Assembly (NCBI GenBank): GCA_963716725.1
Contig: CAVQUB010000005.1
Coordinates: 1 to 64,000 of the forward strand
DNA: 64,000 nt
From: an uncultured delta proteobacterium
GTDB lineage: Bacteria; Myxococcota_A; Polyangia; Polyangiales; Polyangiaceae
Direction of reading: 5' to 3'
The number at the start of each line of letters is the position of its first letter. Positions within the stretch are counted from its first letter, which is position 1. Made by a program: the position numbers and the translations under genes. This document shows, one piece after another, positions 18,920 to 59,188 of the stretch. The notes under the pieces are model-generated. The model was not told the origin of the DNA. It did no database searches and saw only the letters and a list, made by a program, of their open reading frames with translations.

Positions 18920-19130
18920 CGCTGGGTGACGTTCGCCGAGCACGACGAGCCTGGGACGACCCTTGGAAGTACCCGGGGGGGTAAGTCCCAGAAGTGGGAG
19001 GAGGTGGTCGAGGCACTCACGACGGACACTCCCAATGAATCGTTCACAGAAAGCGTTCGCCTTCGTCGCCCGCACAGGCGTTTTCAACACCCTCGTGCCG
19101 ACGCCGCGCGCGACGCGGTCGAACTTTCGG
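18920..19130 (-). pseudogene. rve/integrase-core transposase remnant carrying a nested 54-nt insertion
   Basis: VLKTPVRA.KANAFCERFIGSVRRECLDHL...VLGERH. Confidence 0.7.
18945..18998 (+). repeat. 27-nt mini-element, type A nested inside type A (54 nt)
   Basis: ACGAGCCTGGG[ACGACCCTTGGAAGTACCCGGGGGGGT]AAGTCCCAGAAGTGGG. Confidence 0.8.
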
Positions 19131-19410
19131 TCGCGTTGGTTGATCGAGGAGTATTTCAAGGCTCTCAAAACTGGCTGCGACATCGAGAAGCGTCAACTCG
19201 AGAGCTGCAGCACGCTCCTCGTGGCGCTCGGTGTCTTCGTGCCTATCGCGTGGGGTCTGCTCCGCTTGCGTGCGCTCTCCAGAACGGCGCCCGACACCCC
19301 GGCAAATCGAGTCCCCACTCCAACGCAGCTCGACCTGCTTCGGCGGCACCCCAAGGCAAAGATGTCTTCGACCGCGAGCGTGCGCGAAGCGCTGCTCGCA
19401 GTCGCCCCAA
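19130..19410 (+). pseudogene. IS4-family transposase C-terminal remnant
   Basis: RSRWLIEEYFKALKTGC.IEKRQLES, homologous to the C-terminus of 32545-33954. Confidence 0.75.
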
Positions 19411-19463
19411 GCAGCCCAATCGACAGCGGAACCCCGGCTTTTGGCCGTGATACTTTCCGGGTC

Positions 19464-19916
19464 ATGGGTAGACTTGGGCTGGCTCTCCTCGGCATCCTCG
19501 CTCTTGGCTGTACGACGCCACCCCAGGTGCAGATTGCACCAATGGTTTCGGAGGCGCGGGCGAACCAACTGAGTGCGATCGCCCACTACAAAGACGAACG
19601 ATTGGAGGTCACCGGGGTCGTCGTTATTGCCGGCGTTCGCAACGTAGATCGATTCGTCGGCAGCCCGGGGTACGGGAGTTGGACCGTTTCACGCGAGAAC
19701 GTTCAGCACCCATACCTGGAGCTGAGCGATCCCGCAGATGCAACGGGGACCGCTCGGCTCGTCTGCTACTTCCAGCCGAGCATGCTCGAGGAAATTGCCC
19801 CATACACCGCGGGCAGGGCGGTTACGGTCGTGGGGAAGTTTCAGGAATTCACGCCGGGCAGCATGTCCGTCGTCTTGAACTCGTGCCGGCTGCGCGACGG
19901 CGAGTCAGCTCATTGA
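19464..19916 (+). CDS. Putative OB-fold lipoprotein
   Basis: Lipobox ALGC; AN...A...YKD.RLEVTGVV...CYF...G..VTVVG.......V.L.SC pattern. Confidence 0.65.
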   Translation: MGRLGLALLGILALGCTTPPQVQIAPMVSEARANQLSAIAHYKDERLEVTGVVVIAGVRNVDRFVGSPGYGSWTVSRENVQHPYLELSDPADATGTARLVCYFQPSMLEEIAPYTAGRAVTVVGKFQEFTPGSMSVVLNSCRLRDGESAH

Positions 19917-20091
19917 TGTGCGCGTGCCGGCTGGATGATGGCGATGCCCGCCAGCTGCTCGATGGGCGCCACAACGGCGCAGGCACTGCGCGCGGCGTGA
20001 TGCGCCTCGGGCCGCGCGCCTCCGTCTGGCCGGGGGCGATGGCCATCACGGCGGCGCCGGCCGATGCGACGCCGCCGTCGGGACGCCGTGG

Positions 20092-20420
20092 TCAGTCGAA
20101 GCGCACCACGCTCGGTGCTGCTGGTTGCGGCGACTGCGAGGGCAGTGCGAATTCCCGGTCGACATCCTCGCTTGGAATTTCGAGCAAATACATGAGAAAG
20201 AGACTGATCTCTCGCAGTCGTGCAACCGCGCCATCCCACGCTCGTTCGAAGCTTCCAGGCATTGCCGGGACGATCGTCGCGAGATTCGCGCTGATCGGGG
20301 CCCGTGTGTGGTCCAGGGTGGCTAGGCACGTGCTGATCAGATGGTAGCCGGCCTCGACTGTCCGGCGAAGTGCCTCGCTTTGCTCTTCCGTCTCGTACGC
20401 AGCGACGAAGACGTTGATCT
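20092..20420 (-). pseudogene. 5'-truncated hypothetical gene cut by the ISCR relic
   Basis: Open frame NVFVAAYETEEQSEALRR...VVRFD* with no clear start, abutting the transposase relic. Confidence 0.35.
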
Positions 20421-20423
20421 CCA

Positions 20424-21763
20424 GCGATCAACGTCCGCCCCTTCGGGCATCGCGAAGCGCGTCACTGCCACGCGCTCGTGCTCGACGGCGTGTACGTGCA
20501 TCAAGACGACGACCCCCGCGCTCCGCTCGAGTTCCTCGAGCTCGACGCGCCTTCCCACGCGGACATCGCCGAGGTGGCGGCGCGCACCGCGGCGCGCATT
20601 GAGAAGATCCTGCGTGAGCACGGCCGAAGCCTTGACCCCGAGCGCGACGACGGCACCCCGCCCGAGCTCGCCCTCGACGACCCTGGGGAATCCTCGACGG
20701 GGGACGAGCCCGGGCTCGCCGCCTGCTACGCCGCCGCGGCGCGAGGCGTCTCCGTCAGCGGCGAACGCGCCGGAAAGCTGCCCCTGCGGCTGATCACCTC
20801 GCCGGAGTCGACCGCGCGCCCACGCGCCGCTGGCGCCACCGACGAGCCCATCGCCGAGGTGCGCGGCATCAACATCCACGCCGCCCAAGCCATCGACGGC
20901 CGCGATCGCCGTCGCGTGGAGCGAATCTGTCAGTACGACCCTTGGAAGTCCCCGACGGGGGACATCACGCGCCCCCCGGTCGCGCAGGACCGCCTCGAGC
21001 GCCGCGCTGACGGCAAGCTCGAACTCAGCTTCAAGCGTGCTTGGCGTGACGACCCTTGGAAGTCCCCGACGGGGGGCGGCACACGCGCGCTGGTCTTCGA
21101 GCCCGCCGACCTCATCCCGCGCCTCGTCGCCGCGGTGCCACCACCTCGCTGGCATTTGTTGCGGTACTTCGGCGTGCTCTCCCTCTTCAGGGACTTCCAA
21201 GGGTCGTCGAGCCACTCGTCGCGACGGCGCCTCGTCGTGCCCACACCGCCGGCGGACGCGACCGCGAACAAGCCTCCGCCAGCCCGCGGCGATCAGCTCG
21301 AGCTACTTGGCGAGAAGGACGACGCGCCGGTGCAGCGCAAACGATGGGCATGGATGCTGGCCATTGTCCCCGCTGCTCCGGTCCAATGCGACGCGCTTCG
21401 CGATACTCGCAGGAGTGCTGGGCCGAGGTCGCAACGACCCGGGCCGCCATCACGCGCTTGCTCTCCGAGCACGACCCTGGGAAGTCCCTGAAGAGGGCCG
21501 GTCTCGGGGCTCGAGCGCCGCCGCCTCAGCACGCGAGCCTCCGCGTGCCCGAGCAGCTCGTGTTGGGGTTCGGGGAAGGGTGAGGCTTCGTCGCGGGACT
21601 CGCCAAGGCGGTGCTCCATGCTCGGTGGCGCCTTCTGCCTCGCAGTGACGGTCCGCAGCGGCAATCAGTGCTCAGCCAGCCGCCCAGACCTGCCTCTCGA
21701 CCTCCAACCGACACGCGCGTACTCTTCGACTCGGTGGGTTTTGGCAGATGGAATTTCCTACGC
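20424..21763 (+). mobile_element. IS91/ISCR-family transposase 3' relic with seven 27-nt insertions and an oriIS-like end
   Basis: Paralogue of 10129-11308, including the HUH motif (HCHALVLDGVY). Insertions at 20436-20462, 20677-20703, 20935-20961, 21049-21075, 21181-21207, 21391-21417, 21471-21497. End motif GCAGATGGAATTTCCTACGC. Confidence 0.85.
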
Positions 21764-21808
21764 GCAGGGAGAACGCGAGCCAGACCGCGCTACCCTGACC
21801 CCTGACCC

Positions 21809-22669
21809 ATGGACCACTTCGTTGCCTACCACAGCGTCGAACTCATGGGCCACGACTACAGCCCTGAGGACCAGTTCGACTATCGCAGCCGAAAACCAGA
21901 ACCGTTCCTCCGCGCCTCGCTCGGGGCTCTGGTCTGGCTCATCGTTGGTAGCCGCGGGACGAAACGGACGCAGTATCGTCTCGCCGGGGTCTACACGCCA
22001 ACGTCCGTGCGACAAGGTGCTGACGGCCAGATCGTCGAAGGCTGGGGAACGCCGTTGCGTCCCCCCCCGGTTCTGAGCAATTTGCCATGGTTTTCTGGAT
22101 TTCTGCGCGCCCAGGCGAACTTTAGTCTCGGCTTCAACCGGTTGACGGACGCGTTTGCCATTCAAGCGTTGAGCCAATTGGTGGCTGACTCGGAGCGCGC
22201 GCCGTTCGACGACGCCTCGCGCCTTGGGAGCCCAGAACTCGCGTTCGATCCGGAGAACTTTGTCGATGCCCGCGATCGCGTCATGACAACCATCGTCCGA
22301 CGCCGGGGTCAGCCTGGCTTTCGGGCCGCGCTGCTGCAGGCCTACGGTTCGACGTGTGCCTTCTCGGGATGTGCTGTCGAAGATGTCTTGGATGCCGCGC
22401 ACATCGTGCCGTATCGAGGCGTTGAGACGAACCACGTCCAGAATGGGCTGCTGCTGCGGACCGATCTGCACGCGCTGTTTGATCTGGGGCTTCTTGCCGT
22501 TGACGCTGGCACAATGGGGATTCTCGTTTCCCCGGCGCTCGAGGCGTCCGAATACGCGCAATTCGTGGACCGCTCGCTTCGCGTGCCGGCGGAAACAGAT
22601 CGGGCGCCTTCGGCAGCAGCGCTTGAACATCATCGCGTGAAGACCGGATTGACTCCACGTTGCAAGTGA
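21809..22669 (+). CDS. HNH endonuclease, putative restriction/defence protein
   Basis: RRGQPGFRAALL.AYG..CAFSG...LDAAHIVPY...NGLLLRTDLHALFDLG. Confidence 0.85.
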   Translation: MDHFVAYHSVELMGHDYSPEDQFDYRSRKPEPFLRASLGALVWLIVGSRGTKRTQYRLAGVYTPTSVRQGADGQIVEGWGTPLRPPPVLSNLPWFSGFLRAQANFSLGFNRLTDAFAIQALSQLVADSERAPFDDASRLGSPELAFDPENFVDARDRVMTTIVRRRGQPGFRAALLQAYGSTCAFSGCAVEDVLDAAHIVPYRGVETNHVQNGLLLRTDLHALFDLGLLAVDAGTMGILVSPALEASEYAQFVDRSLRVPAETDRAPSAAALEHHRVKTGLTPRCK

Positions 22670-22810
22670 CGAGCCTTTCGCCTACGCGCGGGTCGCGCAG
22701 CTGAACGCTGACGGTTTGGAGGGAGTCAGTGTCCTGCCCGATCCCTTCGGCCCACCCCCACCCGTCAGCCCCCGCCCGCCCCTCACCCAATCCCCAGATT
22801 CCTCCGCTCG

Positions 22811-22882
22811 GGTTGCCCCCCCTCGCCTCACTGCGCTCGGCGGTCCCCCCCTTAATCGCGCTGCGCGCGATTGGGGGGACGC
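22811..22882. repeat. Compact member of the E1/E2 structured-element family (E3)
   Basis: GGTTGCCCCCC-T-CGCC-TCAC-TGC-GCTC-GGCG-GTCCCCCC...GGGGGGAC. Confidence 0.6.
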
Positions 22883-23019
22883 GTTCGCTTGGTTGTCGCG
22901 GCCGGTGCACGAGAATAAACTTGAACCTTCACTTCCTCTCGGAAACCGGAACCTAAATCGGGAGCTTCTGTCGCGAACCGACGTGAACCGAGGCGATCCG
23001 AGGTGTTACGAGACGCCGA

Positions 23020-23538
23020 TCACGCCGTTCGGCTTCGTTGAGCGACGTTTCCGACGATTCGCCGACGATTGGAGGCGGTCCGCTGGCCCCGCCTTGGAGT
23101 GCTCGAAGGACGGCTCTTCCGCGTGTCGCTCGGTCCCGTTCGAAGCTCTTCCAACCGGCGAGGATCGGTGGCCAGCAGCGTGAGCAGGTGCGTCATCGGG
23201 ACACTCGGCGTCTGACTTCCCGCCTCGTACTTCTGGAAGGCCCTCGGCCCACCACCGAGCAACTCGCCCGCCTTGCGCTGGCTGAGCCCGAGCTTCTCCC
23301 GGATGGCCGCGACCTCTGCGGGGGGAAGGACTTGCTCCGCCTTTGCCTTCAGGTCCTGGAGGGCTCGGCTGTACTTGCGGAGATCCTCTCCGCTCAGGAT
23401 CCCTTCGCCGCACGAGTCGCACCACCATCCGGTGACCCGAACCTTCCCCTCCAAGTCGCGGTACTTGAGGGGACGAACCTTCCGTCCGAACTTCATCGTG
23501 CCGCCGCATTCGGGGCACGCCTGGGTCTTGGTTTTCAT
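23020..23538 (-). CDS. mqsA: MqsA-family antitoxin (zinc finger plus HTH)
   Basis: CPECG...WCDSCGE...IREKLGLSQRKAGELLGGGPRAFQKYEAG. Confidence 0.85.
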   Translation of the reverse strand: MKTKTQACPECGGTMKFGRKVRPLKYRDLEGKVRVTGWWCDSCGEGILSGEDLRKYSRALQDLKAKAEQVLPPAEVAAIREKLGLSQRKAGELLGGGPRAFQKYEAGSQTPSVPMTHLLTLLATDPRRLEELRTGPSDTRKSRPSSTPRRGQRTASNRRRIVGNVAQRSRTA

Positions 23539-23540
23539 GA

Positions 23541-23846
23541 CTACTTGTCCTTCAGCGAGATCAGCAGGTAGCCGGATTCGTCCGTCGTGAACTTCACGTA
23601 GAGGATCCGGGCCTCGAACGGCAGGTGGTACACGTCCTGCCAGATGCGGTGGTCTCCAATCGAGGTCATCGACTTGTAGAAGTGGGCACGCTCGACGGTC
23701 TGAACGAGGTCCACGATCCCGGCGTCGGAGAGCCCAAGGTCGAGCGTTGCGAACGTCAAGCTGGACTCGGTGAGCCGGAGGCCGTCCACCGTGGAGAAGG
23801 TAGCCTTGATCGAGACGAGGTCGTAGTGGGGACGCCTCTTCTCCAT
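23541..23846 (-). CDS. mqsR: MqsR-family mRNA interferase toxin
   Basis: MEKRRPHYDL..IK...FYKSMTS..DHRIWQDVYH...YVKF...LISLKDK. Confidence 0.9.
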   Translation of the reverse strand: MEKRRPHYDLVSIKATFSTVDGLRLTESSLTFATLDLGLSDAGIVDLVQTVERAHFYKSMTSIGDHRIWQDVYHLPFEARILYVKFTTDESGYLLISLKDK

Positions 23847-24376
23847 TGCGACCTGTGGAGCATGGCACCTCTAAGGAGCCACGTCAAGAGCAGCCGATCA
23901 CTCCGTTCGGCGTCGTTGAATGGCCAGAAAGCCTACCGGAACAACTTGGAGAGCGCCGAGCGGCGCACGGAGACGAAGGGGGCCCCGTCCGGCGGGGCGA
24001 TAGGTACCAAGCTGGTTGTCGCCCGGTCCCTCGGCCGGCACGTACACCAAGCTCGTCATCCGCTTTCGTGGCCCGTTCTGCTACCTCGATGCTCATCGGA
24101 AGGGTGAGGACTACCATTCCAGCTCTTCTTGCTGCTGCTGGGGCCAGTGAAGTCCAGCAGCTCGTCAGCGAGCACGGGGCGGTGCCGGTGATCGTGATCG
24201 ACGAGGATGGTGTGGCAGCGGTGTCGTTCTGCCAGGTCGGACCGAGGTTCGATGCCAGCATGACGAATCTCTCCGAGCGACGCCGCTGGAGCGCCCCCAA
24301 CGCTGAAGAAGCCGAACACGGCTGTGATGTCCGTGACCTTCGACGACTCGACCAGGAAGGAGTAATCTTGAACCCG

Positions 24377-24601
24377 ATGCACGCCTTGAAGGCCCAGGTG
24401 AAGAACGGCCGTCTCGTTCTCGACGAACCGACTGATCTGGCGGAAGGCAGGGAGGTCGAGCTTTTCGTCCTGGACGACGAAGAGTTCGCCCCGGAGGAGA
24501 AGGCTCGGTTGCTCCAGGCCATCGAGGACGGGGTCGAAGATTTCGAGCGGGGCGACCACATGGACGGCTTCGAGTTCATCGCCCAGCTACGAGCCAAATG
24601 A
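24377..24601 (+). CDS. Small antitoxin-like protein; partner gene apparently removed by the ISCR fragment
   Basis: LKAQVKNGRLVLDEPTDL.EG.EVEL...L.QAIE....D.ERG; its stop overlaps an ATG at the start of the duplicated ISCR block. Confidence 0.55.
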   Translation: MHALKAQVKNGRLVLDEPTDLAEGREVELFVLDDEEFAPEEKARLLQAIEDGVEDFERGDHMDGFEFIAQLRAK

Positions 24602-25428
24602 GTCGGAGGTCGGAATTCACGCGTTGCACAGCGGTGATCGCGCCGCTCTGGCCTTTGCCCACGCGGTAGAGGTCGCGCATCGTGCGGCGGTAGAAGCCGA
24701 GCACGCTGTCGGCGAACAGTCGCGTGATCCGGCTGAGCAGCTCGCGGTCGTAGGCGACGCGGGCGCGGAGCTCGAACGGCAAGGTGAGAACCCACTGCCT
24801 GAGCGGAGCACGCGACGGCAGAACATGGTCGATCCAATTCGCCGCTGACTCGGCCATCGTTCTGCCCAGGCACGAGGGGCACCATGCGCGTCCCTTGCAA
24901 GAAAACGCGACCAAGAGCTTCGCGCGGCACTTCGGGTCTTGGCATTGAAGAAATCCAAAACCGTGCGCCAGGATTCCGCACTCGAGGTAGCCCTCGAACT
25001 CATCCCTCACGAACGCCGGCAACAGCGCGATGATCTCTTCGGTCTGCGGCGGCTTCGAGCGTGCGGTAGTTCTCGGCGACGACCTGGTAGAAGTCGCTGA
25101 GCTCCGGTCGCCGGCGTCGATATTCGACGCCGCTGCCATCCGAAGTTGCGTCCGAGATCGGCAGCGCGGCGGCCATCGCCGCGCCCGAGCGCACACGGCG
25201 TGCCGACCCCGCCCGGGGCGAGAACGCCGCAAATTACCGTGTTGCAGGCGCTCGGGTGGGTGGCGAAACGCCGGCCGCCGGCGGCGGCCGCCACTGCCCA
25301 CCGCTGCGCGCTACCCCGCCGCCGCCGCGAACCCCAGCGACGCACCCGATTCCGGCGCTCGCATCACCAGCATCAGACGCGTCCGTTCCCTGGCAAGCCA
25401 GGGTCCGAAGCTCGTGAACCACGCCGGC
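24599..25428 (-). mobile_element. Duplicated 5' part of the ISCR-like element (copy of 34414-35242)
   Basis: ~830-nt near-identical repeat containing the zinc-binding region (CG.L.HGF...C...FSCKGR.WCPSC); 1-nt frameshift near 25040. Confidence 0.9.
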
Positions 25429-25440
25429 GCGTCCCTTCCC

Positions 25441-25516
25441 GGGGTGGTAGCTCAGCTGGGAGAGCGCCTGGATGGCATCCAGGAGGTCTGGGGTTCGATT
25501 CCCCACGGCTCCACCA
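25441..25516 (+). tRNA. tRNA-Ala(GGC)
   Basis: Cloverleaf with GGC anticodon, G3:U70 pair, TTCGA T-loop and encoded CCA; one G-G mismatch in the acceptor stem. Confidence 0.9.
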
Positions 25517-25952
25517 ATGCAATGAATTCGAACCCCCCTCCGCAACTTGCAGGAGGTTGAGGCTCTTGAGCTTGCAGGTGCCAGGCGCTTCCGAGACCGA
25601 CCCGTCGGGCGGCTTCGCAACGGGCGCAGCGCCCACCCGCCGATAGCGGACATGGTGGATCGGGCCCGGCAGCGGGCGACTGCCGACGTTCTCAAGGTTG
25701 CGCGCGCAGATGGCGTTCGCGTCGGCATGAGCGCTCTTCAAGTCGGTCTTCACGTGGGTGCCGAGTCCGCGCGCGGTGCTGCGCATGGCCGATGCAACGC
25801 AGGAAGATGCTCAGGCGCCCCTCAAGCCGTCAACACCGTGCGGAGTTGCCCTGTAAACTGGGCTCTGCACCCACCACCGTTCGCCGCGCCCGCCACTGAG
25901 CGCGCCCGGCACCCAGCTGGCCGACATCGACGGGGACGGCGCGCTCGACCTG

Positions 25953-28900
25953 GTGCTGAAGAGCGGGCTCGCCGAGTTCCGATTCTTCCCTGGGAAGTCG
26001 GCGACCAGCTTCGGCGCCAAGGTCCAGATCCCCACGGTTCCGAACGTCGACTTCGACGACCCGAACGTGCAGCTCGCGGATCTGGACGGCGACCGCCGCG
26101 CAGACGCGGTGATCTCGGCGGCGAGCGGGTGGGCCGTGGCCTACAACCTGGGCGGAAGCGACTTCGCCGCGCCCGCGAAGCTGGGCGTGATCGACGCGAA
26201 GCAAACGCTCCACTTCGCCGATGGCCACACCTCGCTCTGCGACGTCAACGGCGATCGCGTCGAGGACGTCTGCTACTTGATCCCGGGTTCGCTCGCCTAC
26301 TGGCTCGGACGCGGTCGGGGCGTCTTCGAGCCCGCGGCGTCGGGAAGCGGCGTGCCCACGTTCGAGGCCTCGAGCCCTTGGGAGCTCCGCGACCTGAACG
26401 GCGACGGCTGGGTCGATCTCGTGCACGTCGGCGTGGGCCAGGTGCGCTTCGCCCTCGCCGTGGCGCCGGGCCAGTTCGGCCCCGAGCGCAGCATCGGTGG
26501 CGTCCCTCAGAAACTCCCGAGCACGGTTGTACGCTTCGCCGACATGAACGCTTCCGGCACTACCGACGTCGTGTGGGTCGACGTGACCGGAGCGCCGAGC
26601 GCCGCCTGGCGCTACCTCGAACTCTTCCCAAACGGTCGCGCCGGCCTACTGCGCAAGATCGACAACGGCTTCGGCGGCACAACCACCATCGCGTACGGCA
26701 CCGCCGCCCAGGACGCCGCCGCCGCCCGCGCCGCCGGCAAGCCTTGGGACACACGGATCAACGTCGCGCTGCCCGTGGTGAAGGGCGTTCGGTTCGACAG
26801 CGGGCTCTCGGATCCTGCCCAGACGACGGAGTACGTCTACCAGGACGGCTCCTACGACGTCGCCGCACGCACCTTCGCCGGGTTCGGGGGCGGCGAAGAG
26901 ACCGTCGTCGGCGACTCGAGCACGCCGACTTTGATCACCAGCAGCCGCTTCGACGTCGGGCTCGTGCACCGCGTGCTGCGCGGTGCGGTGCTCAGCGTCG
27001 AGACCCGAAGCGAGACGGGGAAACTCTTCACGCGTGTGGAGAACCAGCACGCTGTCTTGCCGGTGGCCAAGGGTCTCGACGGCCGCGCCATCGAGTACGC
27101 CTACCGCTCGAGCGAGGCGAAGCAGATCGCGGAGGGCGTCGACCCCGCGCTCGCGCGGCACACGCTCGCGGAGTGGGAGCACGACGAGTGGGGGAACGAG
27201 ATCGCCCATCGTGACTTCGGCGAGGTGGTCGCCGGTGACGTGCTGGCGGGCAACGACGAGCGCATCACGCTGGCGACCTACGCTCAAGACACGGCGAACT
27301 GGGTCCTCGGGCGCCCCGCAACCCGCGAGGTGCAGAGCGCCGCGGGCAAGCGTTTCTCGCTCGTCCGGACGTACTACGACGGCAAGGCCTTCGAGGGGCT
27401 CTCGCTGGGAAAAGTGATGCGCGGTGACGCCACCCGCATCGAGCAATGGGCCGGTCCGGAGAAGGATCGGTTCGTCCTCACCACCGCAAACGCGCACGAC
27501 GCCCACGGCAACGTGACCGAGAGCCGTGACGCGGCCGCCGGTGCCCGGCGCTTCGCGTGGGATCCGGTCGACCACACGTCGCTGCTCGGCGAGACGCTCG
27601 TGCTCGAGGGCCGCGAGCTCGAGGCCACCACCCAGGTGCACCGGCCGAGCGGCAAGCCGCTGAGCGTGACCGGATTCGACGGGCAGAAGACCCTCTTGGC
27701 GTACGACGCGCTCGGCCGACTGACGGCCATCGCGCGGCCGGGCGACACTCTGGAAGCGCCGACCTTGGCGTACGAGTACCTGCTGAGCGCGCCGCTGTCG
27801 CGCATCGTCACTCGTTCGCGAATCTGGAGCGGAAAGGACGAAGTCGAGATCCAGGAGAGCCTGATCGATTCGCGCGGCAAGAGCCGCGGCCGGATGTTGC
27901 GTGACGGCGCGGAGCGTTGGGTGCTGGACGGGGTTACGCTCTTCGATGCGCGCGGCAACGCCCGACGCGACGTTTTACCTCGCTTCCTGACCCTGGCGGA
28001 GCACGACTCGCCGCCGCTCCTCGACGAAGCCCCTGGCACCCAGCAGCGACGCGACGCCATCGGGCGAGTCATCGAGCGGCGCCTGCCCAGCGGCATCCAG
28101 AGTCGGATCGAATACATGCCCCTCGGCAAACGGACGTGGGACGGGGCGGCGAACGATCCCGCCTCGCCCTACGAGCACACCCCCGCGGTGGAGGCGATGG
28201 ATGGGCTGGGCCGGCTTCTGTCCATCTCGCACACGCTCGAAGGCAAGCTCCTGACGGAGAGCTACGAGTACGACGCGGCCGACAACCTCTTGTCGAAGGT
28301 CGATCCCGAGGGACACGTGTCGCGCTTCGCCTACGACGGCCGCGGCCTTCGGATCGCCATCGACGACCCGGACGCCGGCAAGCACACGCTCGCATACGAC
28401 GACGCCGGCAACCTGGTCGAGCACCGACGGCCCGACGGCACCATCGGTCGCGACCGCTTCGACCGCTTGGGGCGCAAGCTGAGCGAGGACTGGGACGGCG
28501 ACGGCGAGCCCGAGGTCGAGCTCGAGTACGACGAGCACCCGGACCGCCCCGGGGACCCGAGCGCGCGCGGCCGGCTGGTGATCACGCGGGACGCGAGCGG
28601 CTCGATCACGCGGAGCTACGACCCGCGCGGGAACGTGGTGCGCCTGCACCAGATCGTCGAGGGCGAGAGCTACGTGTCCGAGATGCGCTACGACGCGCAA
28701 GACCGGCTCTATCTCCATGGTTACCCTGACGGTTCGTCGCTCCGGCTCCACCGCAACGAGCGCGGGCAAATCTCCCGTTACGGCAGAGCAGTGGAGATCG
28801 CCCTCGACGCCGACGGGCAGGAGACGCAACGCACGTTCAACACCGGCGTCACCCAGCTGTTCGGCTACGACGACGATCGCCTGCCGCGCGCGAGCCGAGT

Positions 28901-30671
28901 CAAGGCGCCCGACGGCGGCGTCCTGCAGGACCTCGAATGGGCGCGCGACGGCGCAGGCAACGTGCTGGAGGTGAAGGATCGCCGCGCCAGCATCGACTCC
29001 GCGACGGACCGCGGCGAGGTCTACGTCTACGACAACCTCTACCGCTTGCGCAGCGCGTCGGGCAGCTGGGGCGAGACCTCGTGGAGCTACTCGCCGAGCG
29101 GCAACCTGGTCCACAAGAAGAGCACGCTACCGGACGAGAACGCCGGTGACCTCGGATACGGCAAGTCCGCCGGCCCCCACGCCATGACCCGGTACCGCGG
29201 GCGGACCCTGGCCTACGACCCGATGGGTCGGATCATCGACGACGGCGTGCGCAAGTACCGTTGGGACGCCTTCAGCAACCTGATCGCCGTCGAGACCAAC
29301 CAGGCCTCGGTCGAGAGCACGTTCGGGCAAGACCACGAGCGTCGGGTCAAAGTCGAGCGCGGCGCGGACGGTCAAGAGCACCGCACTCACTTCCTCTCGC
29401 CGTGGAGCGAGGTGCGCGACGGGGAACTCGTGCGCTTCATCGTGCACGAGGGTCAGCGCATCGCGCGGCTCGGCCCCGGCACCGGAAGGCCGGCGGCGCT
29501 CGGACCACTGCCGGAAAACGGCGGTCCCACCTCGCCCTGGCCGTTCTTCTTCATCGCGCTCGTGCCGGCCATCGAGCTCCTGCGCGGGCAGCGCCGCTGG
29601 GCCAGTGCGCACGCGCTCGCGGCGGTGGCGCTCCTCGGCTGCAGCGGGGACGACGCAAGCCGGAACGCCTCGCCCTCCGAGGGTACCGTGCTCACGCTGG
29701 GCGCGGACGACGCCCTGCTCTTCCATGATGGCCTCGGGTCGCTGACGGAGGTGGTGCGCGCGACGGGCGAGCGGCTCGCGAGCGTGGCCGTGTATCCGTA
29801 CGGGCGCACGCGCTACGACGACGCGAGCGAGACCGACAAGTACACGGGGGTGCCCCGCGACGGCAGCGTCGAGGTCGATCACATGCAGGCGCGCTGGTAC
29901 GTGCCGGAGCTCGGCGTCTGGAGCAGCGTCGATCCGCTGAACTGGCTCGACCCGACCAAGAAGGCGGGTTTGGCGTTCGCGACGGGAAACCCGTACGCTT
30001 ACGCGGGCGGGCAGCCGACGACGCTGACGGACCGGAGTGGGGAGTGTGGGCCGTGCGTGTTTGTCGTCGTGGGTCTCGCGGGCCTCGCGTCGGGCATCGC
30101 TGCCAACTCCGAATACAATCGACAGATCAAGGCCCGTGAGCCCTCGAGCCTTCCGAAGATGATCGCGGCCAGCGTGATCGCTGGCGAGGGTTCTCTGCTG
30201 AGCAGCCAAATCCCAGTGGCTGGTGTGTTCGGCGAGTCGTTCGCGGGTGCAATGACTCTCGGGGCGATCCGAGGCTCCGCAGTGTCAGCAGGAACTTACG
30301 GTGCAACGGTCGCCGCCACCGGGCAGCCCTTCGACAACGAGTACTTCTCGAAGACCGTCGCGTGGGGCGGGGTTTCTGGCGCCTTCAGCGGCATGCTGTC
30401 CCAGGGAAAAGCGAACTGGGACACGTCGGGCTGGACGGCCGCCCAGGTCGAATCCGGCCACAAGCAGCACCAGATCGCGTCGAGCTTGATCTCCGGGCAG
30501 ACCAGTACGCTCAAGTCCACCGTGTTCCTACCCTCACCCAAGCCCAGCCCGAGCTCGGCGCCCAAGCCCGCGGTGCAGTCTTGGGTGTACTCCTACTCGG
30601 TTTCGAGAAGCGTCGAGGGAACGAACACCGCCGAGTGGACCGACAACATGGTGAAGGAAGTGCAGCGGTAA
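25953..30671 (+). CDS. TcdB-like/Rhs (YD-repeat) toxin with FG-GAP repeats, probably 5'-truncated
   Basis: DLDGD/DVNGD repeats, GLLRKIDNGFGG, YD repeats, Rhs core end ARWYVPELGVWSSVDP...NPYAYAGGQP..LTDRSG, then a ~205-aa hydrophobic C-terminal domain. The frame opens mid-repeat after a stop near 25854. Confidence 0.85.
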   Translation: MLKSGLAEFRFFPGKSATSFGAKVQIPTVPNVDFDDPNVQLADLDGDRRADAVISAASGWAVAYNLGGSDFAAPAKLGVIDAKQTLHFADGHTSLCDVNGDRVEDVCYLIPGSLAYWLGRGRGVFEPAASGSGVPTFEASSPWELRDLNGDGWVDLVHVGVGQVRFALAVAPGQFGPERSIGGVPQKLPSTVVRFADMNASGTTDVVWVDVTGAPSAAWRYLELFPNGRAGLLRKIDNGFGGTTTIAYGTAAQDAAAARAAGKPWDTRINVALPVVKGVRFDSGLSDPAQTTEYVYQDGSYDVAARTFAGFGGGEETVVGDSSTPTLITSSRFDVGLVHRVLRGAVLSVETRSETGKLFTRVENQHAVLPVAKGLDGRAIEYAYRSSEAKQIAEGVDPALARHTLAEWEHDEWGNEIAHRDFGEVVAGDVLAGNDERITLATYAQDTANWVLGRPATREVQSAAGKRFSLVRTYYDGKAFEGLSLGKVMRGDATRIEQWAGPEKDRFVLTTANAHDAHGNVTESRDAAAGARRFAWDPVDHTSLLGETLVLEGRELEATTQVHRPSGKPLSVTGFDGQKTLLAYDALGRLTAIARPGDTLEAPTLAYEYLLSAPLSRIVTRSRIWSGKDEVEIQESLIDSRGKSRGRMLRDGAERWVLDGVTLFDARGNARRDVLPRFLTLAEHDSPPLLDEAPGTQQRRDAIGRVIERRLPSGIQSRIEYMPLGKRTWDGAANDPASPYEHTPAVEAMDGLGRLLSISHTLEGKLLTESYEYDAADNLLSKVDPEGHVSRFAYDGRGLRIAIDDPDAGKHTLAYDDAGNLVEHRRPDGTIGRDRFDRLGRKLSEDWDGDGEPEVELEYDEHPDRPGDPSARGRLVITRDASGSITRSYDPRGNVVRLHQIVEGESYVSEMRYDAQDRLYLHGYPDGSSLRLHRNERGQISRYGRAVEIALDADGQETQRTFNTGVTQLFGYDDDRLPRASRVKAPDGGVLQDLEWARDGAGNVLEVKDRRASIDSATDRGEVYVYDNLYRLRSASGSWGETSWSYSPSGNLVHKKSTLPDENAGDLGYGKSAGPHAMTRYRGRTLAYDPMGRIIDDGVRKYRWDAFSNLIAVETNQASVESTFGQDHERRVKVERGADGQEHRTHFLSPWSEVRDGELVRFIVHEGQRIARLGPGTGRPAALGPLPENGGPTSPWPFFFIALVPAIELLRGQRRWASAHALAAVALLGCSGDDASRNASPSEGTVLTLGADDALLFHDGLGSLTEVVRATGERLASVAVYPYGRTRYDDASETDKYTGVPRDGSVEVDHMQARWYVPELGVWSSVDPLNWLDPTKKAGLAFATGNPYAYAGGQPTTLTDRSGECGPCVFVVVGLAGLASGIAANSEYNRQIKAREPSSLPKMIAASVIAGEGSLLSSQIPVAGVFGESFAGAMTLGAIRGSAVSAGTYGATVAATGQPFDNEYFSKTVAWGGVSGAFSGMLSQGKANWDTSGWTAAQVESGHKQHQIASSLISGQTSTLKSTVFLPSPKPSPSSAPKPAVQSWVYSYSVSRSVEGTNTAEWTDNMVKEVQR

Positions 30672-30708
30672 TCCTCGTATCGCAAGTAGCAAGCTCAGTC
30701 CGAGCTTG

Positions 30709-31185
30709 CTACCGGCGACGTTTGCGACGCTCGCCCCACAGGAAGACCCGCACGAAGAGGCTATTTGGCTTCAGGACGCCCAGCATCGCCAGGTGTGCGA
30801 CGACGACGATCGCAACCAATATCGGCGAAGCGACGATCTCGAGCGTGAAAAACGTCACCCAATAACTCTCGAGTCCAAGCACCGCCCTCTGGAGGTAGTT
30901 CACCGCGGCGGCAGGCCACGCTCCGACGTCCGCAGCGAGCAGCGGCCAAGCCATGCTGGCACAGAACCCTGCGCCCCAGATCGCAACGGTGAAGAGAGGA
31001 TCGATGCGCGAGAGCGAGCCCCAACGCTTCGCCACACGTTTCGGTGCCTTTTTGGTGAGCCACAGGCCAGCGAACCCTGCAAACTGCAACAGGTACCCGG
31101 CGACCATCAATGTGATGAGGAACGCTTCGAGGCTCATGCCTGCGGGCTGAAAGGCGGGAGGCCTCGGATAGTGGGGGATGGACAT
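30709..31185 (-). CDS. Small membrane protein, paralogue of 31197-31490
   Basis: Several hydrophobic helices; shared motif AWPAAAVN...SYWVTFFTL.I.ASPI. Confidence 0.55.
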   Translation of the reverse strand: MSIPHYPRPPAFQPAGMSLEAFLITLMVAGYLLQFAGFAGLWLTKKAPKRVAKRWGSLSRIDPLFTVAIWGAGFCASMAWPLLAADVGAWPAAAVNYLQRAVLGLESYWVTFFTLEIVASPILVAIVVVAHLAMLGVLKPNSLFVRVFLWGERRKRRR

Positions 31186-31196
31186 GCTGATCACCC

Positions 31197-31490
31197 TCAG
31201 CGCCGGCTCTTCTTCTTGCGACGGGCCTCGAACAGCGCGACCCACAGGTGCCCGACTCGGCCCTCTCTCCTCAGAATGCCCAACGCCAATAGTTTCCCGA
31301 CGACGTACATGAACACCGGGATCGGCGAAGCCAGGATCTGGAGGGTGAAGAAGGTCACCCAGTAGCTCTGGCCTCGGAACACCGACTGCTGAGCTCGATT
31401 CACCGCGGCAGCGGGCCAAGCCTCCACGCCGGCGGCGAGCAAGCCGGTGGGCTCGTGCGCACGAGCGAGCACCAGGGTCTGGAAGCTCAT
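31197..31490 (-). CDS. Small membrane protein, possibly 5'-truncated by the ISCR end
   Basis: Shares AWPAAAVN...SYWVTFFTLQILASPI and a basic tail with its neighbour. Confidence 0.5.
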   Translation of the reverse strand: MSFQTLVLARAHEPTGLLAAGVEAWPAAAVNRAQQSVFRGQSYWVTFFTLQILASPIPVFMYVVGKLLALGILRREGRVGHLWVALFEARRKKKSRR

Positions 31491-31514: not shown

Positions 31515-34500
31515 GCATAGGTGAAATGAACGGGGGGTGGTTGGTGAGCTGGCGCGTCTGAACGTCGAATCGGCTGCTGTTGAAGGAGCGAGCAGCGCGC
31601 GGAGCAGTCTCGGCAGTCTCGATTCGCCTCGCGGCGCCATCCTTTTCACCGCTGACACCACCATCGTTCCGGTCTCGGAGAATACCAGGCACACGACCGC
31701 CCTGCACGTCGCGAGCATCGCAATGCATCACTCACCGAACATATCCAGCTGCGGGAGCGAGTCGCTGTCGAGCTCGCCGAACCTCCGGCGCAGCGCCGGG
31801 CTCGTGAAGAACGGCGGTCTTCGCGCTGGCGCGATGGGAGGAGGCTCGGCATCCTCTCCGAGCCTGCGCAGGAAGCGCGTCACGGTCTGGGCCGCAGTGA
31901 CCATCCCCCCGCCGGGGATGCCCCTCCGGGCACTTTCAAGGATCGTCACGAAGCGCGTCGCGCGGAGCAGCATGGGTGCGCCGCACTTGGCACATTTCTC
32001 GCTGTCGATTTTGAAAGTGCGCTTGAGGAGCTCACGCCACGGGCGATAAGTCGAGCGATGCGTCGCCGGTCGTGCGGCGGTGGCGGTCTCATCGTGAATG
32101 TGGGCAGGAGCACGCGCAGGGTTCGTGGTGGCACAGTCGTGCACCGGTGGCGGAGGTGGAGCGACTCTGGTTCTCCAGCGATGAGCTGCAGCGAGCACCC
32201 CCGAGTCCCCCGTCGGGGACTTCCCAGGGTCGTAATGGACGCGATGGGCGCGTGGGGCAGGCACCGAGGCGGCTAGCCGGAGAAGAAACGACAACGGATC
32301 GAGATCGATGGCCGTGGTGCCGTCGGAGAACGGTCGCTTGAGCAGGATGCGACGCGCTTCGCGACGATCCTTGAAAGTGCCCGGAGGGGCATCCCCGAAG
32401 GGGGGCACGAGCCCACTTCCGAGTCGACGCACTCGGTCTTGCGCGAGCGGCGGGCGTAGGACGTACTTGCAGAGGGTTTCGCGAGCACGCGCGTCCTCCC
32501 CCGTCGGGGACTTCCCAGGAGCCGCTTCGGAACACCCGGAGGGCTCATGATTGATCGGATCCCATCTGGGACCGGGCAGCTCGGAAGCCGATCTCGTAGT
32601 CGAGGAGCTTCTGGTAGCCCCGTCCTAACGTTTGCCACCCGGGTGCGCCGTTGTTCTTCAGATGCCCGCCGAGTCGCGCGACAGCGAATAGCGCTTGCTC
32701 AATGGTCTGCGGGACGGCCGGGAGGCGGAGCTTGAACTTTATGAGGAGCAACTGGGGCTCACTCAGGATCGTTGTTGCCGGTTGCTCGGGTGCGACGCGG
32801 GCTAACGAGCGCATGAGCAACAGGCGCCAGGCGATGGGCAGGAACACGGCGAGCGCGTTGCTCAGTGCCTGATACGACTCGAGCTGTCGTTTCTCGAGAG
32901 AACACCCTTGCTTGAGTGCCTTGAAGAACTCTTCGATCACCCACCGACTGCGGTAACAGTCCACGACGGTCGCGAGTTCGGCGACGGTGTCAATGGGTTC
33001 GGTAGTGAGCAGCACCCACTCGACCGACGGCTCGCCTTCTGGTGGTTGGAGTTCCCAGACTCGAACCACGTTGAGTTCGATGCTGCGCGTCTCATGTCGA
33101 GTGTTGCGGGGGCGCAGCACAGTCAAACGTTTGCCTGCCACGGCGACCTCCGCGCTCCGGGCGTTGCGAGACGGGTGCTCTTTTGCAGCATGCGCGCGAC
33201 TGCTCGGTTTCCTCGATGACACCGAGATCGTGCGAAAAAACTGCGGTTCGAGCGTTGAGATTGCACTGCGCAAGCAGATGCCTATTTCCTCAGTTACTCG
33301 GTCGTGAGCCGAACGGATGACGTAGCGCGCACCGAGTTCCTGCGCCTTCGCCAGGACCTCGAAAATGTCCGCTTCGCGGTCCATCACGTGAATGAGCGCG
33401 CTGCCGGGGCAGCGTGCATGGACGGCCTCGAGCATGGCCGGCCAGCGCAGTGATTCGCGCTCGGGGTCTCTCCGACTGACAGACCGGCGGCGCCCGCGTC
33501 CACCCTTGTGTACGAGGCGGACGTGTCGCTGTAGACCCAGAACTCCGAGTGGCACTCGCTCCTCGCCGGGAAGCACGGCCAGCGCCACGTGTGCGAGAAA
33601 CCCCTGGCTGCCGCCGGACGTGACGCCCAACCCAGCTCGCCGACTGGCGCCGCCGAGCGATACTTCGGTCGTATCGTGCGCGACGATACACAGGCCAGCG
33701 GAACTCACACGCTCCACCGTCGCCGACAGGTGCGGGTCAAGGATCTGCTCCGCGTCGAACTGCTCGTTGCGCAGGAATCGGTAGACTCCCTCAAGCTCGG
33801 ACGGAGTGTCGACAGCCTGCGGAAACCCAACACCGGGCGCCGCCATCAGTTTCTCAGCGAGCCAACCGAGCCTGTCACTGCGCCGCTTATCGCCGAGCTG
33901 AGAGCCCTCGAACTCGTCCGAAATCGACCGCCCTAACCATTCTGTTGCCGGCATTTCTCCCGTAGATCACACGCGCCGTCCGCTCGCAATGAGATGTGTT
34001 TGATCATGAGCCGGAGGGGTGGTCCTCGCCGGGAGCCGTGGTGGCCGCATGCACCGAGAAGCCGTCCTCGCGGGCGGCCAGACCGGAAACGGAGAGCTCG
34101 CCGCGATCGGGCAGTGCGATGGCGGGACGCTGCCGATGCTCGGGCCCCGCCGGAGGGTTGCCGGTGACGGCGGCGGTGGCGAGTGCGGCCAGCTCGGGCT
34201 CGCGCTCGGCGAAACCGTCGTCGGTGAGGCAGAGCTCGTTGTCTCGTTCGACGACGCCGCGACGCGCGAGAAAGTCCAAGATGCGCACGCGGGCGGCGTG
34301 CAAGAGATCTGCGACGTCGGAGTTGGAGAGCGCGGGGAGCTGGTGGAAGACGAGGCTCCCGTCATCGGTCTCGAGGAAGACTCCGTCCAACGCGAGCAGG
34401 TGCAGGTGGGGGTTGAGTCGGAGGTCGGAATTCACGCGTTGCACAGCGGTGATCGCGCCGCTCTGGCCTTTGCCCACGCGGTAGAGGTCGCGCATCGTGC

Positions 34501-57051: not shown

Positions 57052-57070
57052 CGTGTAGATCCTTCGTCCG

Positions 57071-57658
57071 CTAGCGCTTCTCGTTCTGAGCGGCGGCGGG
57101 CAAGATGGGCTCGTGCGGGGCTTTCTCGCCCTTCTGAGCGCGGTCCTTCATGTCGTACTTGGAGGGGCACTTGGCCATGATCTGATTGGCTTCGAAGTAG
57201 CCCTCGGCGTGGAGCTTTCCTTCGGCGGTGACCTCGACGTCCATGTCGGGCACGTCGCGGAAGGTGTCCGGGACCACGCACTGGGCGTAGCGCACGTCGA
57301 TGGTCTTCTCGTTCTTGACCATGGTGAAGCGGTATTCGCAGGGCTCGTCGCGCCGCTTCAGCGTGCCCTTGAGCAGATTGCCGGCCACGCGCACGTTCCT
57401 GTTGCCGAGCTTCTCGCGTTCGGCCACCAGCTCGTCGACACCCTTGGAATAGACGGCCGAGTCTTCGAAGCTGGTGAGGACCAGCGCGAGGATGCCGCCG
57501 CCCATCACGAGCAGCGCCGCGACCAAGCCGAGGTTCTGCATCTTGCGCTGGGTCGGTGGCTGTTCGGCCGCCGGGGCGGCGACCGGCCGATCGGAGTCGG
57601 GCGCGCCGTCCTCGGAGGTCTGCACCGCTTCCGCCAGCTCTTCGTCGAGCTTGCTCAT
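57071..57658 (-). CDS. ccmE: Cytochrome c maturation heme chaperone CcmE (CxxxY type)
   Basis: TM helix, PDTFRD, EG, MAKCPSKY. Confidence 0.85.
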   Translation of the reverse strand: MSKLDEELAEAVQTSEDGAPDSDRPVAAPAAEQPPTQRKMQNLGLVAALLVMGGGILALVLTSFEDSAVYSKGVDELVAEREKLGNRNVRVAGNLLKGTLKRRDEPCEYRFTMVKNEKTIDVRYAQCVVPDTFRDVPDMDVEVTAEGKLHAEGYFEANQIMAKCPSKYDMKDRAQKGEKAPHEPILPAAAQNEKR

Positions 57659-57723
57659 TGAATGCAAAGCGTAGTCGCGTGGTCCCTGTCGGTCCACTGG
57701 CTGGGCATGCCATCGAAGAAAGC

Positions 57724-58212
57724 TCAGTCGATTTTCGGCAGACGGGGCCGGCGGCGGAGTCCCGCGCGGGCGCCCAGCGCGGCGCCGAGCGCAGCCAGCG
57801 CCCCCAAAACGCCCAGCGTTACCGCCGCCACTGGCCAGGGACGCAGTGCGCCGCTCGACACGGTGAAGAGCCAGGCGCCCAAGGCCGCCAAGGTGCACCC
57901 GAGCACAGCCTCGCGCGCCCCCGCGCGCCCCCCGTGACGTCCCACGACGGCGCCGGTGATGCTCGTCGCAGCCACGAGGGACGCGAGCGCCGGAACCACC
58001 AACATCAGCGCGGCCGCTCCCCGCGCCGCGCCGCCGCCGGCGGCGTCGCTCGCCCAACGCGAGAGCAGCGCCCGACCCAGCGCGAGCGCCAGCATGCCGA
58101 GCGGGACCCAGAGCGTGAGGGTGAGCGCGGCTGCGATCGCCACCCACTGCGACGGTGGCCGGGTCTCGCCTTCGTCGTCCGGCGACTGAATCACGGGCAG
58201 GCGTCGCACCAT
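57724..58212 (-). CDS. Hypothetical membrane protein
   Basis: Four hydrophobic segments. Confidence 0.55.
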   Translation of the reverse strand: MVRRLPVIQSPDDEGETRPPSQWVAIAAALTLTLWVPLGMLALALGRALLSRWASDAAGGGAARGAAALMLVVPALASLVAATSITGAVVGRHGGRAGAREAVLGCTLAALGAWLFTVSSGALRPWPVAAVTLGVLGALAALGAALGARAGLRRRPRLPKID

Positions 58213-58299
58213 CCGAGTCGATCCTTAGCGCGGAATCCGAAAAACCACACAACCCGAGCCCGGCCCACGCCGAAAGGGGTGTAGCCTCACGGCCGTCCG

Positions 58300-59188
58300 A
58301 TGTTCGCGCGCTGGTTCTGCTCCTGCTCCGCTGTCGTGCTCGTCGTGACGCGCTTCGCGACGATCCTGGAAAGTCCCCGGAGGGGGATACCCGACGGGGT
58401 GGGGCAGGCATGGGCGGCCGAATCGGGGATTCGATCCCGAGTCACCGGCCGAGTCGACGCCTGCGCCTGCGCCTGCGCCCGCGACGACGGCGGATCCGCC
58501 GTACGCAGCCTGGCAAGGCTCGGGTCACGCCCCACCCGACGGCTACTCACCCGGATCGATTCCGGCGCCAGCGGTCGGCGCACCCATCTACGCGCGTCGA
58601 ACGGTCGAGCTCATCCCCGCGCTTGGCGTCGCCCTGGCGAACTGTCGCGCCGGCTCCCGCTCCGACAACCGCTGTGATGGCGTCGGCGGCGGCGGCATCG
58701 TCGGGTTCACCGGGCTCTGGCGAGTCACGCCCTACTTCGCGTGGGGTGGCGGCTTCGAGGTCGCGGCGTTCCGCAATCGACCCTCCGAGGAGAGTGAGCT
58801 CTCCGACGCGAGCGCTGCGGCCGTGTGGCTCGGGCTGATCGGTCGGGTGTATTTCAACGACGAAGGCGCCCTCGATCCCTACGTGCAACTCGCCATCGGC
58901 GTCGGTGCGCTCGGCACGCAGGCGACCGATCCGGCGGACGTCACCTGGGAGGAGACCGGCGCCGGACCCGCGGCACAAATTGGCGGGGGCCTCGACTTCC
59001 ACCTTTCGCGATCGCTTCGGCTCGGTCCGTCGCTGACCTACACACGGGTGTTCGTGGACAAGATCCGACGCTGTCAGGCCTCGGGCGGCGGCAAGTGCGA
59101 GGACGTGTCGAAGGACGACGACGGTCACTTGAACTCACACCTGACGCTGGCCGCTCGCCTGACCATCACTCTGGGGGGGGAGCACTGA
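58300..59188 (+). CDS. Secreted/outer-membrane beta-barrel-like protein with a 54-nt insertion in its signal peptide and a +1 frameshift near 58428
   Basis: MFARWFCSCSAVVLVV[18-aa insert]GQAWAAESG, continuing in the next frame as FDPESPAES...DPYVQLAIG...LTITLGGEH*. Confidence 0.6.
58348..58401 (+). repeat. 27-nt mini-element, type A nested inside type B (54 nt)
   Basis: ACGCGCTTCGCG[ACGATCCTGGAAAGTCCCCGGAGGGGG]ATACCCGACGGGGTG; same composite as 31905-31958 and 32352-32405. Confidence 0.85.

Follow-up and report, generated by a model that had tools for sequence, protein, structure and literature searches.

The first 64 kb of contig C5 (CAVQUB010000005.1) of an uncultured delta proteobacterium of the Polyangiaceae (assembly GCA_963716725.1, a 7.9-Mb genome of 68% G+C in 35 contigs) contains 14 loci of 27-nt units that belong to two families, A and B, and each 27-base unit of either family consists of two small hairpins. 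This whole stretch of 64,000 nucleotides is referred to below as the window. The units enter DNA as exact 27-nt pieces without target duplication, and comparison of copies from many genomes supports the view that pairing in their stems persists because a change in one strand is matched by a change in the other. We are fairly confident that the 27-mers are mobile and constrained in structure and, a little less firmly, regard them as probably very small, non-autonomous single-strand mobile elements resembling repetitive extragenic palindromic (REP) sequences. An earlier note, made from the letters of this DNA, had recognized the pairing of the stems; the main point absent from it was that the units are discrete, nested and tandem insertions.

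By what means short hairpin repeats spread when no transposase is linked to them is still an open question, for which the 27-mers offer a clean test case because they combine a length of 27 nt, base-exact borders and a fixed nesting point with one constant half and one half subject to paired change. Binding and cleavage tests on short oligonucleotides are feasible, as is phylogenetic profiling for the mover across three phyla.

Two families of 27-nt units

A unit of family A is formed by a 15-nt arm, ACGAYCCTKGRAAGT, followed by a 12-nt hairpin with a 4-bp stem and a GNNG loop; in family B, GACGCGCTTCGYGAY is followed by a 12-nt hairpin of the same kind. The hairpin is preceded by AAGT or by AT/AC, and the arms read ACGAYCC... 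and GACGCGC.... In the window CCCNGNNGNGGG occurs 22 times, against 7.93 +/- 2.65 (maximum 14) in 100 shuffles. Genome-wide, the full 27-nt pattern has 91 occurrences and its reversed control none; family B also stands by itself, in 47 copies (at most one mismatch to the first 20 nt), and paired units number 136. Most units are single and dispersed, and arrays, where they occur, run head to tail and are free of spacers. Copies are mostly intergenic: just 7 of 69 loci have coding-like frames on both sides and the other 62 do not, while six of those seven are in the IS91-like gene, and both clusters of the window sit in IS91-like genes. The loci in the window are as follows.

18945..18998, + strand: family A nested double of 54 nt; the inner unit (18956-18982, stem ACCC-GGGG-GGGT at 18971) enters an outer unit between its 11-nt arm piece (18945-18955) and AAGT, the latter followed by CCCA-GAAG-TGGG (stem at 18987; together 18983-18998)
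20437..20463, - strand: family B unit GACGCGCTTCGCGAT plus GCCC-GAAG-GGGC, hairpin at 20437-20448; DNA fold of -8.2 kcal/mol with both hairpins formed
20677..20703, + strand: family A unit in degenerate form (CCTC-GACG-GGGG); the empty paralogue lacks it, making it an exact 27-nt insertion
20935..20961, + strand: family A unit (CCCC-GACG-GGGG at 20950), read in frame as DPWKSPTGD in an IS91-like gene; exact 27-nt insertion
21049..21075, + strand: family A unit (CCCC-GACG-GGGG at 21064), read in frame as DPWKSPTGG; exact 27-nt insertion
21181..21207, - strand: family A unit in reverse (CCCT-GAAG-AGGG at 21181), read as LFRDFQGSS; exact 27-nt insertion
21390..21416, + strand: family B unit (ACTC-GCAG-GAGT at 21405); exact 27-nt insertion, with empty sites at C13:92658 and C12:55971
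21471..21497, + strand: family A unit (CCCT-GAAG-AGGG at 21486); exact 27-nt insertion, LLAEH^GLG becoming LLSEH-DPGKSLKRA-GLG
31906..31959, - strand: 54-nt composite, family A (31920-31946, GCCC-GGAG-GGGC at 31920) in family B
32207..32233, - strand: family A unit (CCCC-GACG-GGGG)
32351..32404, + strand: 54-nt composite, family A (32364-32390, GCCC-GGAG-GGGC at 32379) in family B
32498..32524, - strand: family A-like unit with diverged arm (CGGCTCCTGGGAAGT) plus CCCC-GACG-GGGG
32519..32543, + strand: family B-like unit (CCG-CTT-CGG, CACCC-GGAG-GGG), truncated by an IS4-type element with the end CTCATGAT
58347..58400, + strand: 54-nt composite, family A (58360-58386) in family B, intergenic and upstream of a CcmE-domain gene

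All hairpins listed in the earlier note were found in the window; one of them, CACCC-GGAG-GGG at about 32533-32543, is interrupted after GGG by an insertion sequence (IS), leaving no intact GGGTG. The 5' hairpins with a CTT loop are also present, as CGCG-CTT-CGCG or CGTG five times and as CCG-CTT-CGG at 32522. The sequence of about 54 nt that had been described as a unit of 'type B' does exist, not as one unit but as a family B unit interrupted by one of family A, which lies between ...CGYG and AY.... Searches of the window against Rfam 15 returned only two tRNAs at the gathering score and no match for the 27-mers, and 14 loci from other genomes had no match at E <= 0.1. A CRISPR array or a type III antitoxin repeat array was also considered and ruled out, there being no unique spacers and the units being mostly single and dispersed.

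Compensatory change in the stems

Alignment A2 joined 110 flank-unique copies from a scan of public genomes to nine copies from the window, giving 119 rows, of which 91 are distinct, their sources being the window and over 20 further genomes. Three pairs vary among the distinct rows: pair 5-11 (CG 82, UA 8, UG 1), pair 16-27 (CG 70, AU 17, GC 2, GU 1, other 1) and pair 19-24 (CG 56, UA 25, AU 5, GC 3, GU 1, UG 1); the other five are uninformative, as the search pattern fixed them. Paired cells amount to 99.9% overall, and at the three variable pairs the pair types need at least six double changes, while only 5 of 273 cells are wobble or unpaired. The covariation score of 0.265 compares with 0.076 +/- 0.009 in shuffled alignments, none of 500 reaching the observed value, and slid partners score at most 0.067; the copies fall into few subfamilies, and the shuffle figures therefore overstate independence. 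That stem pairs co-vary, as had been claimed, is thus upheld by compensatory changes at three pairs.

An unbiased set was assembled from copies in the window's own genome, picked by the arm (at most one mismatch) with no hairpin required. Among its 78 flank-unique copies, 57 have four Watson-Crick pairs out of four, and of the 21 imperfect copies several are visibly disrupted by an IS or hold an 8-nt duplication. The earlier description of the 3' hairpin as always having a paired stem is therefore too strong in its 'always'.

Filled and empty insertion sites

Insertion can be followed in the IS91-like genes of the window, whose parts are as follows.

20418..21580, + strand: old copy of an IS91-like (Y2_Tnp) transposase gene, with seven units inside
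9850..11127, + strand: empty paralogue, in which a cNMP-binding domain is joined to Y2_Tnp; serves as the insertion-free reference
31971..32507, - strand: C-terminal part of a second IS91-like gene, host of the cluster at 31906-32543
34004-35047, - strand: Zn-binding N-terminal part of the second IS91-like gene
32545-33954, - strand: IS4-type element (Tnp_DNA_bind plus DDE_Tnp_1) that splits the second IS91-like gene

When the DNA of the old copy is aligned with the empty paralogue, the extra pieces are exactly 27 nt long. In peptide terms, one insert turns ...LCKY^ITRPP... into ...ICQY-DPWKSPTGD-ITRPP..., another turns ...AWRD^GTRAL... into ...AWRD-DPWKSPTGG-GTRAL..., and the reversed unit gives ...GVLS-LFRDFQGSS-SHSS.... 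Six diverged copies of this Y2 gene (four from the window's own genome, a fifth from another genome of the genus and the sixth from a metagenome-assembled genome, or MAG) were compared with the empty paralogue. Within about 1 kb there are nine insertion sites; every insertion is of 27 nt, and each site is occupied in a different subset of the six copies from the three genomes. Two sites that are shared hold different hairpins, fully or nearly paired, according to lineage: CCCC-GACG-GGGG or CCCT-GAAG-AGGG at site 543, and ACTC-GCAG-GAGT or GCCC-GGAG-GGGT at site 858.

Units are tolerated inside open reading frames because 27 nt is nine codons, free of stops in all frames. At C12:54312-56111 an IS91-like frame remains open for 599 residues with five 9-residue inserts; a transposase gene can thus gather five in-frame inserts and stay open, which bears on the decoration of proteins by repeats. 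The HUH motif of this copy is HGH and that of the empty copy HFH.

A genome-wide search with left and right flanks taken separately recovered the empty counterparts of five units of family B and of at least five of family A. Some filled and empty sites have flanks that are 98-100% identical, as in C8:149500 with C6:120300 and C12:275810 with C13:85867; several such sites of family B have unambiguous borders and zero duplicated target bases. The empty sites of family A start with ACG..., ACA... or ACC..., and in the 91 distinct rows of A2 the flanking bases are G at -1 in 72, A at +1 in 81, C at +2 in 62 and G at +3 in 51. The target of family A thus lies mostly between G and AC(G), written G^AC(G). 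Orthologous empty sites were also sought in other members of the genus, which are 67-88% identical in this repeat-rich region, and none was recovered. Four metagenome assemblies were also compared over 17500-33000 as assembled contigs; these are short and break at units, and one contig of run X1 has an exact 27-nt gap at 20676, lacking the unit 20677..20703, although it may represent a paralogue.

Nesting, tandem arrays and insertion sequences

The 54-mers arise where one unit enters another, at a fixed point between arm and hairpin. Arrays are best seen in an IS-like element of 3.5 kb that comprises an HNH-like ORF (open reading frame), whose tail is RuvA_C-like, and an IS5/IS1182-like DDE gene with a frameshift.

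C5:604755-608292: one copy of the 3.5-kb IS-like element, with at least six other copies about 98% identical

An array of family A units lies about 285 nt from the left end of the element, at GTGC^ACGCCCC in the leader, and six near-identical copies hold 2, 2, 4, 5, 6 and 7 units; tandem arrays therefore change length quickly. Further arrays of 3, 7 and 10 units occur alone or inside family B units. In a diverged copy of the element (C15:531620-531700, - strand), a 15-nt family A arm stands directly before a larger hairpin that belongs to the element itself, ACCCCC-TTTGTGT-GGGGGT, in place of the usual one of 12 nt, which may reflect an arm placed beside a foreign hairpin or a later deletion.

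The hairpins are in turn landing sites. An IS with CTCAYGAT ends has inserted into 27-mer hairpins several times, the example in the window being the IS4-type element at 32545-33954; at C4:109705 such an insertion shows an 8-nt duplication (CTGGCGAG), and some units hold the 8-nt duplication alone, as if the IS had left.

Distribution across genomes

The 27-nt pattern is found in five of the six other genomes of the genus, with 2-13 copies, in 1 of 18 genomes from the rest of the family, with two copies, and in 0 of 16 from the rest of the order; the reversed pattern, run as a control, has no match in any of them. The scan of public genomes found at least 103 stretches, and origins were read for the best 80 of the 103. 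These 80 come from at least 21 MAG records among the matches listed, which carry the labels Myxococcales, Polyangiaceae, Kofleriaceae, Deltaproteobacteria, Fibrobacterota or Chitinivibrionales, and Natronospirales, as well as Bacillota, Gammaproteobacteria and Phycisphaerales on single records (labels unverified). In layout the Phycisphaerales locus is identical to one labelled Polyangiaceae, which suggests a binning error. MAGs with the same repeats and IS copies as the window bear the label Polyangiaceae or Myxococcales. The distribution of family A is patchy and extends to MAGs assigned to Myxococcota, Fibrobacterota and Spirochaetota (4 of 121 genomes in a sample of the Fibrobacterota phylum), and family B in one of five carriers outside the window's genus. 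Plasmid, phage and IMG/VR collections gave no real match.

The dominant stem variant differs from genome to genome. ACCC-GACG-GGGT or ACCC-GAAG-GGGT dominates in Fibrobacterota MAGs and CCCA-GACG-TGGG in Natronospirales, while myxobacterial MAGs have CCCC-GCAG-GGGG, CCCT-GACG-AGGG and others; the earlier suggestion of several source lineages agrees with this finding of a particular stem and loop variant dominating in each genome. A Natronospirales MAG holds three copies in frame in YD-repeat genes and four in tandem. In two other myxobacterial MAGs the 27-mer occupies a fixed place in larger multi-copy repeats of at least 100 nt with conserved flanks, and these larger repeats have no Rfam match.

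Comparison with described repeats

One close likeness is to the REP sequences, their doublets (REPINs) and the REP-associated tyrosine transposases (RAYTs). Like these, the 27-mers are short (20-40 nt) hairpin repeats in many copies, mostly extragenic, with compensatory changes in the stem, use as landing sites by IS and a presumed movement as folded single strands. They differ in lacking GTAG at the 5' end of the palindrome, in occurring as singletons, nested 54-mers or direct tandem arrays with no regular inverted doublet, and in that no RAYT is flanked by 27-mers, the RAYT-like gene of the same genome having other repeats. GTAG tag, inverted doublet and flanked RAYT are all missing, so that three defining features of REP-RAYT systems fail despite the REP-like behaviour. 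REPIN-RAYT systems are moreover described, in the available part of the source, as vertically inherited (bioRxiv 10.1101/2022.05.22.493013), whereas family A is common to distant phyla.

Palindromic repeats with a CGTC tag form a second comparison. In the portion of Di Nocera et al. 2013 available (PMC3733652), these have no linked transposase and occur in several phyla including Spirochaetes; one end bears an unpaired CGTC (or TGTC/CCTC), their loops are of 4-5 nt, their stems of 8-9 bp start with A-T pairs, they have a CCA tail, some are intragenic, and how they spread is left open by the describing authors. As far as that text goes, the 27-mers resemble them in having no linked transposase, in occurring in several phyla, in the 4-nt loop and in the presence of some units in genes. 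A CGTC end tag is also possible: on the bottom strand family B ends in CGTC, and family A in TCGT with C as the next base in 72 of 91 rows. Set against that partial description, the 27-mer stem has 4 bp, or 6 with flanking GT/AC, and there is no CCA tail; the 27-mers also have a second hairpin, in the conserved arm of 15 nt, and a fixed length of 27 nt.

Other short repeats are less similar. Rickettsia palindromic elements (RPE) are about 100-150 nt long and are not known outside Rickettsia. They are palindromic repeats found in frame in protein-coding genes that remain unbroken, according to the accessible text (PMC3733652). The 27-mers share such in-frame palindromic insertion but are shorter and mostly intergenic. 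Heterocyst-forming cyanobacteria reportedly carry mobile repeats of under about 30 nt, some with hairpins, lodged in one another and in further repeats and with no known mover, as described by Elhai et al. in 2008; these small dispersed repeats come from a different phylum and have different sequences.

Finally, the units might be compared with miniature forms of IS200/IS605 or IS91. The IS91 family, as partly available to us (PMC13181058), makes no target duplication, has a target tetranucleotide beside one end and subterminal palindromes, and uses a single-strand circular intermediate. On this partial description, the 27-mers agree with IS200/IS605 or IS91 miniatures in the absence of target duplication and in the fixed short word adjoining the insertion, and with IS91 in particular in their subterminal hairpins; in the window's genus, units also cluster inside IS91-like genes. 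They differ in size (27 nt rather than hundreds), in that their two hairpins are unlike each other, in matching no ends of resident HUH elements (the IS91-family element of carrier G042 and 19 Y1/Y2 loci), and in that HUH enzymes are not consistently present in carriers. We found no description of the 27-nt family in the literature searched, where sequence strings and the peptide gave chance primer matches only, and searches on palindromic in-frame repeats in myxobacteria, and on RAYT or REPIN with names beginning in Myxococc, found nothing relevant.

Proposed mechanism and the search for a mover

We propose that the unit would move in single-stranded, folded form. The bottom-strand sequence lies 3' of a target ...CGT and has its own end ...TCGT (family A) or ...CGTC (family B), an arrangement that a single nuclease cutting the same short word at donor end and target would produce. 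The enzyme would act in trans and might most plausibly be of the HUH type, recognizing the arm from its sequence and the second hairpin from its shape; such a division could account for an arm that does not vary between phyla beside a stem that drifts through compensatory change. That an HUH enzyme is in fact the mover we regard as a tentative suggestion. Bolder, and in our view also doubtful, is the idea of 27-nt 'nano-transposons', two-hairpin single-strand units with exact excision and insertion and an unlinked, non-RAYT mover, shared horizontally across at least three phyla (Myxococcota, Fibrobacterota and Spirochaetota). They would perhaps pass through dumbbell circles and form tandem arrays by rolling-circle copying and, if real, would be among the smallest mobile DNA known and a source of 9-residue protein inserts.

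Several observations weigh against the mobile-element reading and its proposed enzyme. No repeat-flanked gene was found in the window's own genome or on Fibrobacterota contigs; between inverted or direct unit pairs on the Fibrobacterota contigs there are housekeeping genes only. The inverted repeats at the genome's own RAYT-like Y1 gene are unrelated to the 27-mers and found nowhere else. Among eight carriers outside the window's genus, which are MAGs of unknown completeness, Y1_Tnp occurs in four, Y2_Tnp in five and neither in one, while Y2_Tnp is present in 30 of 41 relatives, most of them without 27-mers. The active IS91-family element of G042, a Fibrobacterota carrier, has ends unlike the 27-mer, and none of 19 Y1/Y2 loci in carriers outside the genus has a 27-mer. 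Orientation shows no bias relative to local GC skew (18 against 15, with 46 of 79 loci uninformative), and no present-day movement was seen, the sole 27-nt gap in the metagenomes being perhaps a paralogue. Fold energy is unremarkable, at -6 to -8 kcal/mol per unit with z of -1.1 to -2.1; the 3' hairpin has just -6 kcal/mol in that same z range, and energy calculations do not predict the arm hairpin of family A, for which one compensatory pair is the sole basis. Nor is freedom from stop codons special: 36% of shuffles are also stop-free, and we rejected it as an adaptation.

The Y1 and Y2 HUH families were each rejected as candidate movers, neither being consistently present in carriers nor discriminating. 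The earlier note had a protein, with HUH proteins as candidates, reading the folded single strand; with no repeat-flanked gene found and the above counts of Y1 and Y2 in carriers, this stands as a hypothesis. In the window's genome Y1_Tnp has two matches, with no 27-mer within about 2.5 kb; the better one is the RAYT-like gene at C5:165400-166300 (coding part 165574-165909), flanked by inverted repeats of 66 nt with two hairpins each, and since these repeats occur only there it is a REPtron-like unit without a dispersed family. The IS91-like copies of the same genome lie within larger segmental repeats, and their element ends are not definable.

Alternative explanations

An explanation that we consider unlikely is that the host uses the hairpins, as a protein-binding site, a transcript end or stabiliser, or a supercoiling site, as proposed for REPs, with mobility confined to old history and the stems kept paired by selection for that use. 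The mostly intergenic placement fits such a use, as do the Fibrobacterota units, which lie on contigs of 53-62% G+C between genes such as hflX, metH, gatB and dnaX and are frequently enclosed by the loop of a longer inverted repeat. Host use is hard to see, however, for the many copies that sit within transposase genes, within further repeats or within one another. Conservation seems higher in the units than in the adjoining DNA (at a shared site the unit equals the consensus and 4 of 45 upstream bases differ between the copies), but their orientation to neighbouring genes is not uniform, their distribution is patchy even within the genus, from 0 to 91 copies, and no Rfam family matches.

Less likely again is that pairing is a by-product of copying, in which mismatch correction or the copying of one arm from the other in a folded strand makes double changes. 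The rarity of intermediates among the variable pairs would follow from this, as would the different stems at site 543, CCCC..GGGG in one lineage and CCCT..AGGG in another. In one pair of paralogues the 25 nt next to the unit are the same on either side, yet the units themselves are distinguished by a complete paired change; this is no more than suggestive of unit replacement at that site, for the wider flanks of the pair are 75-83% identical, so that these copies are not young, and the data also fit independent insertion at a hot spot, or selection.

A coding repeat, that is, a 9-residue motif DPWKSPxGD spread among genes by recombination, is already contradicted by orientation and placement and is highly improbable: the motif is in frame in the IS91-like protein that stays open with five inserts and in the YD-repeat genes of the Natronospirales MAG, but units occur in both orientations inside one gene and encode unrelated peptides, 62 of 69 loci lie outside coding-like frames, nesting splits a unit into 11 and 16 nt and not codon-wise, arrays are placed upstream of a gene, and the copies in Fibrobacterota are intergenic. 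An artefact of assembly or library, or cross-contamination of MAG bins, is scarcely credible even though every carrier is a MAG, assemblies break at units and the identical layout of the Polyangiaceae- and Phycisphaerales-labelled loci suggests a binning error, for the stem variants are genome-specific, in-frame insertions are common to paralogues that have since diverged, the Fibrobacterota flanks have 53-62% G+C and housekeeping genes, and the pattern is found in only 7 of 41 relatives. The case made against an artefact in the earlier note can now rest on at least 21 separately deposited MAG records, the housekeeping-gene context in Fibrobacterota and the exact 27-nt insertions relative to paralogues.

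Neighbourhood of the units in the window

An HNH_2 endonuclease gene at 21809-22669 adjoins one cluster and is single-copy. Between the two clusters, at 25953-30671 on the + strand, lies a large gene with RHS-repeat, TcdB-middle-domain and FG-GAP regions, of polymorphic toxin type. Positions 1-5000 hold three tandem copies of a repeat of 1.7-1.8 kb, 81-95% identical, with long minus-strand frames; similar blocks adjoin IS91-like genes on contigs C13 and C8, so the whole region is a segmental repeat. The stretches 24599-25340 and 34414-35154 are 100% identical over about 740 nt, and the first ends near a tRNA gene at 25441-25513.

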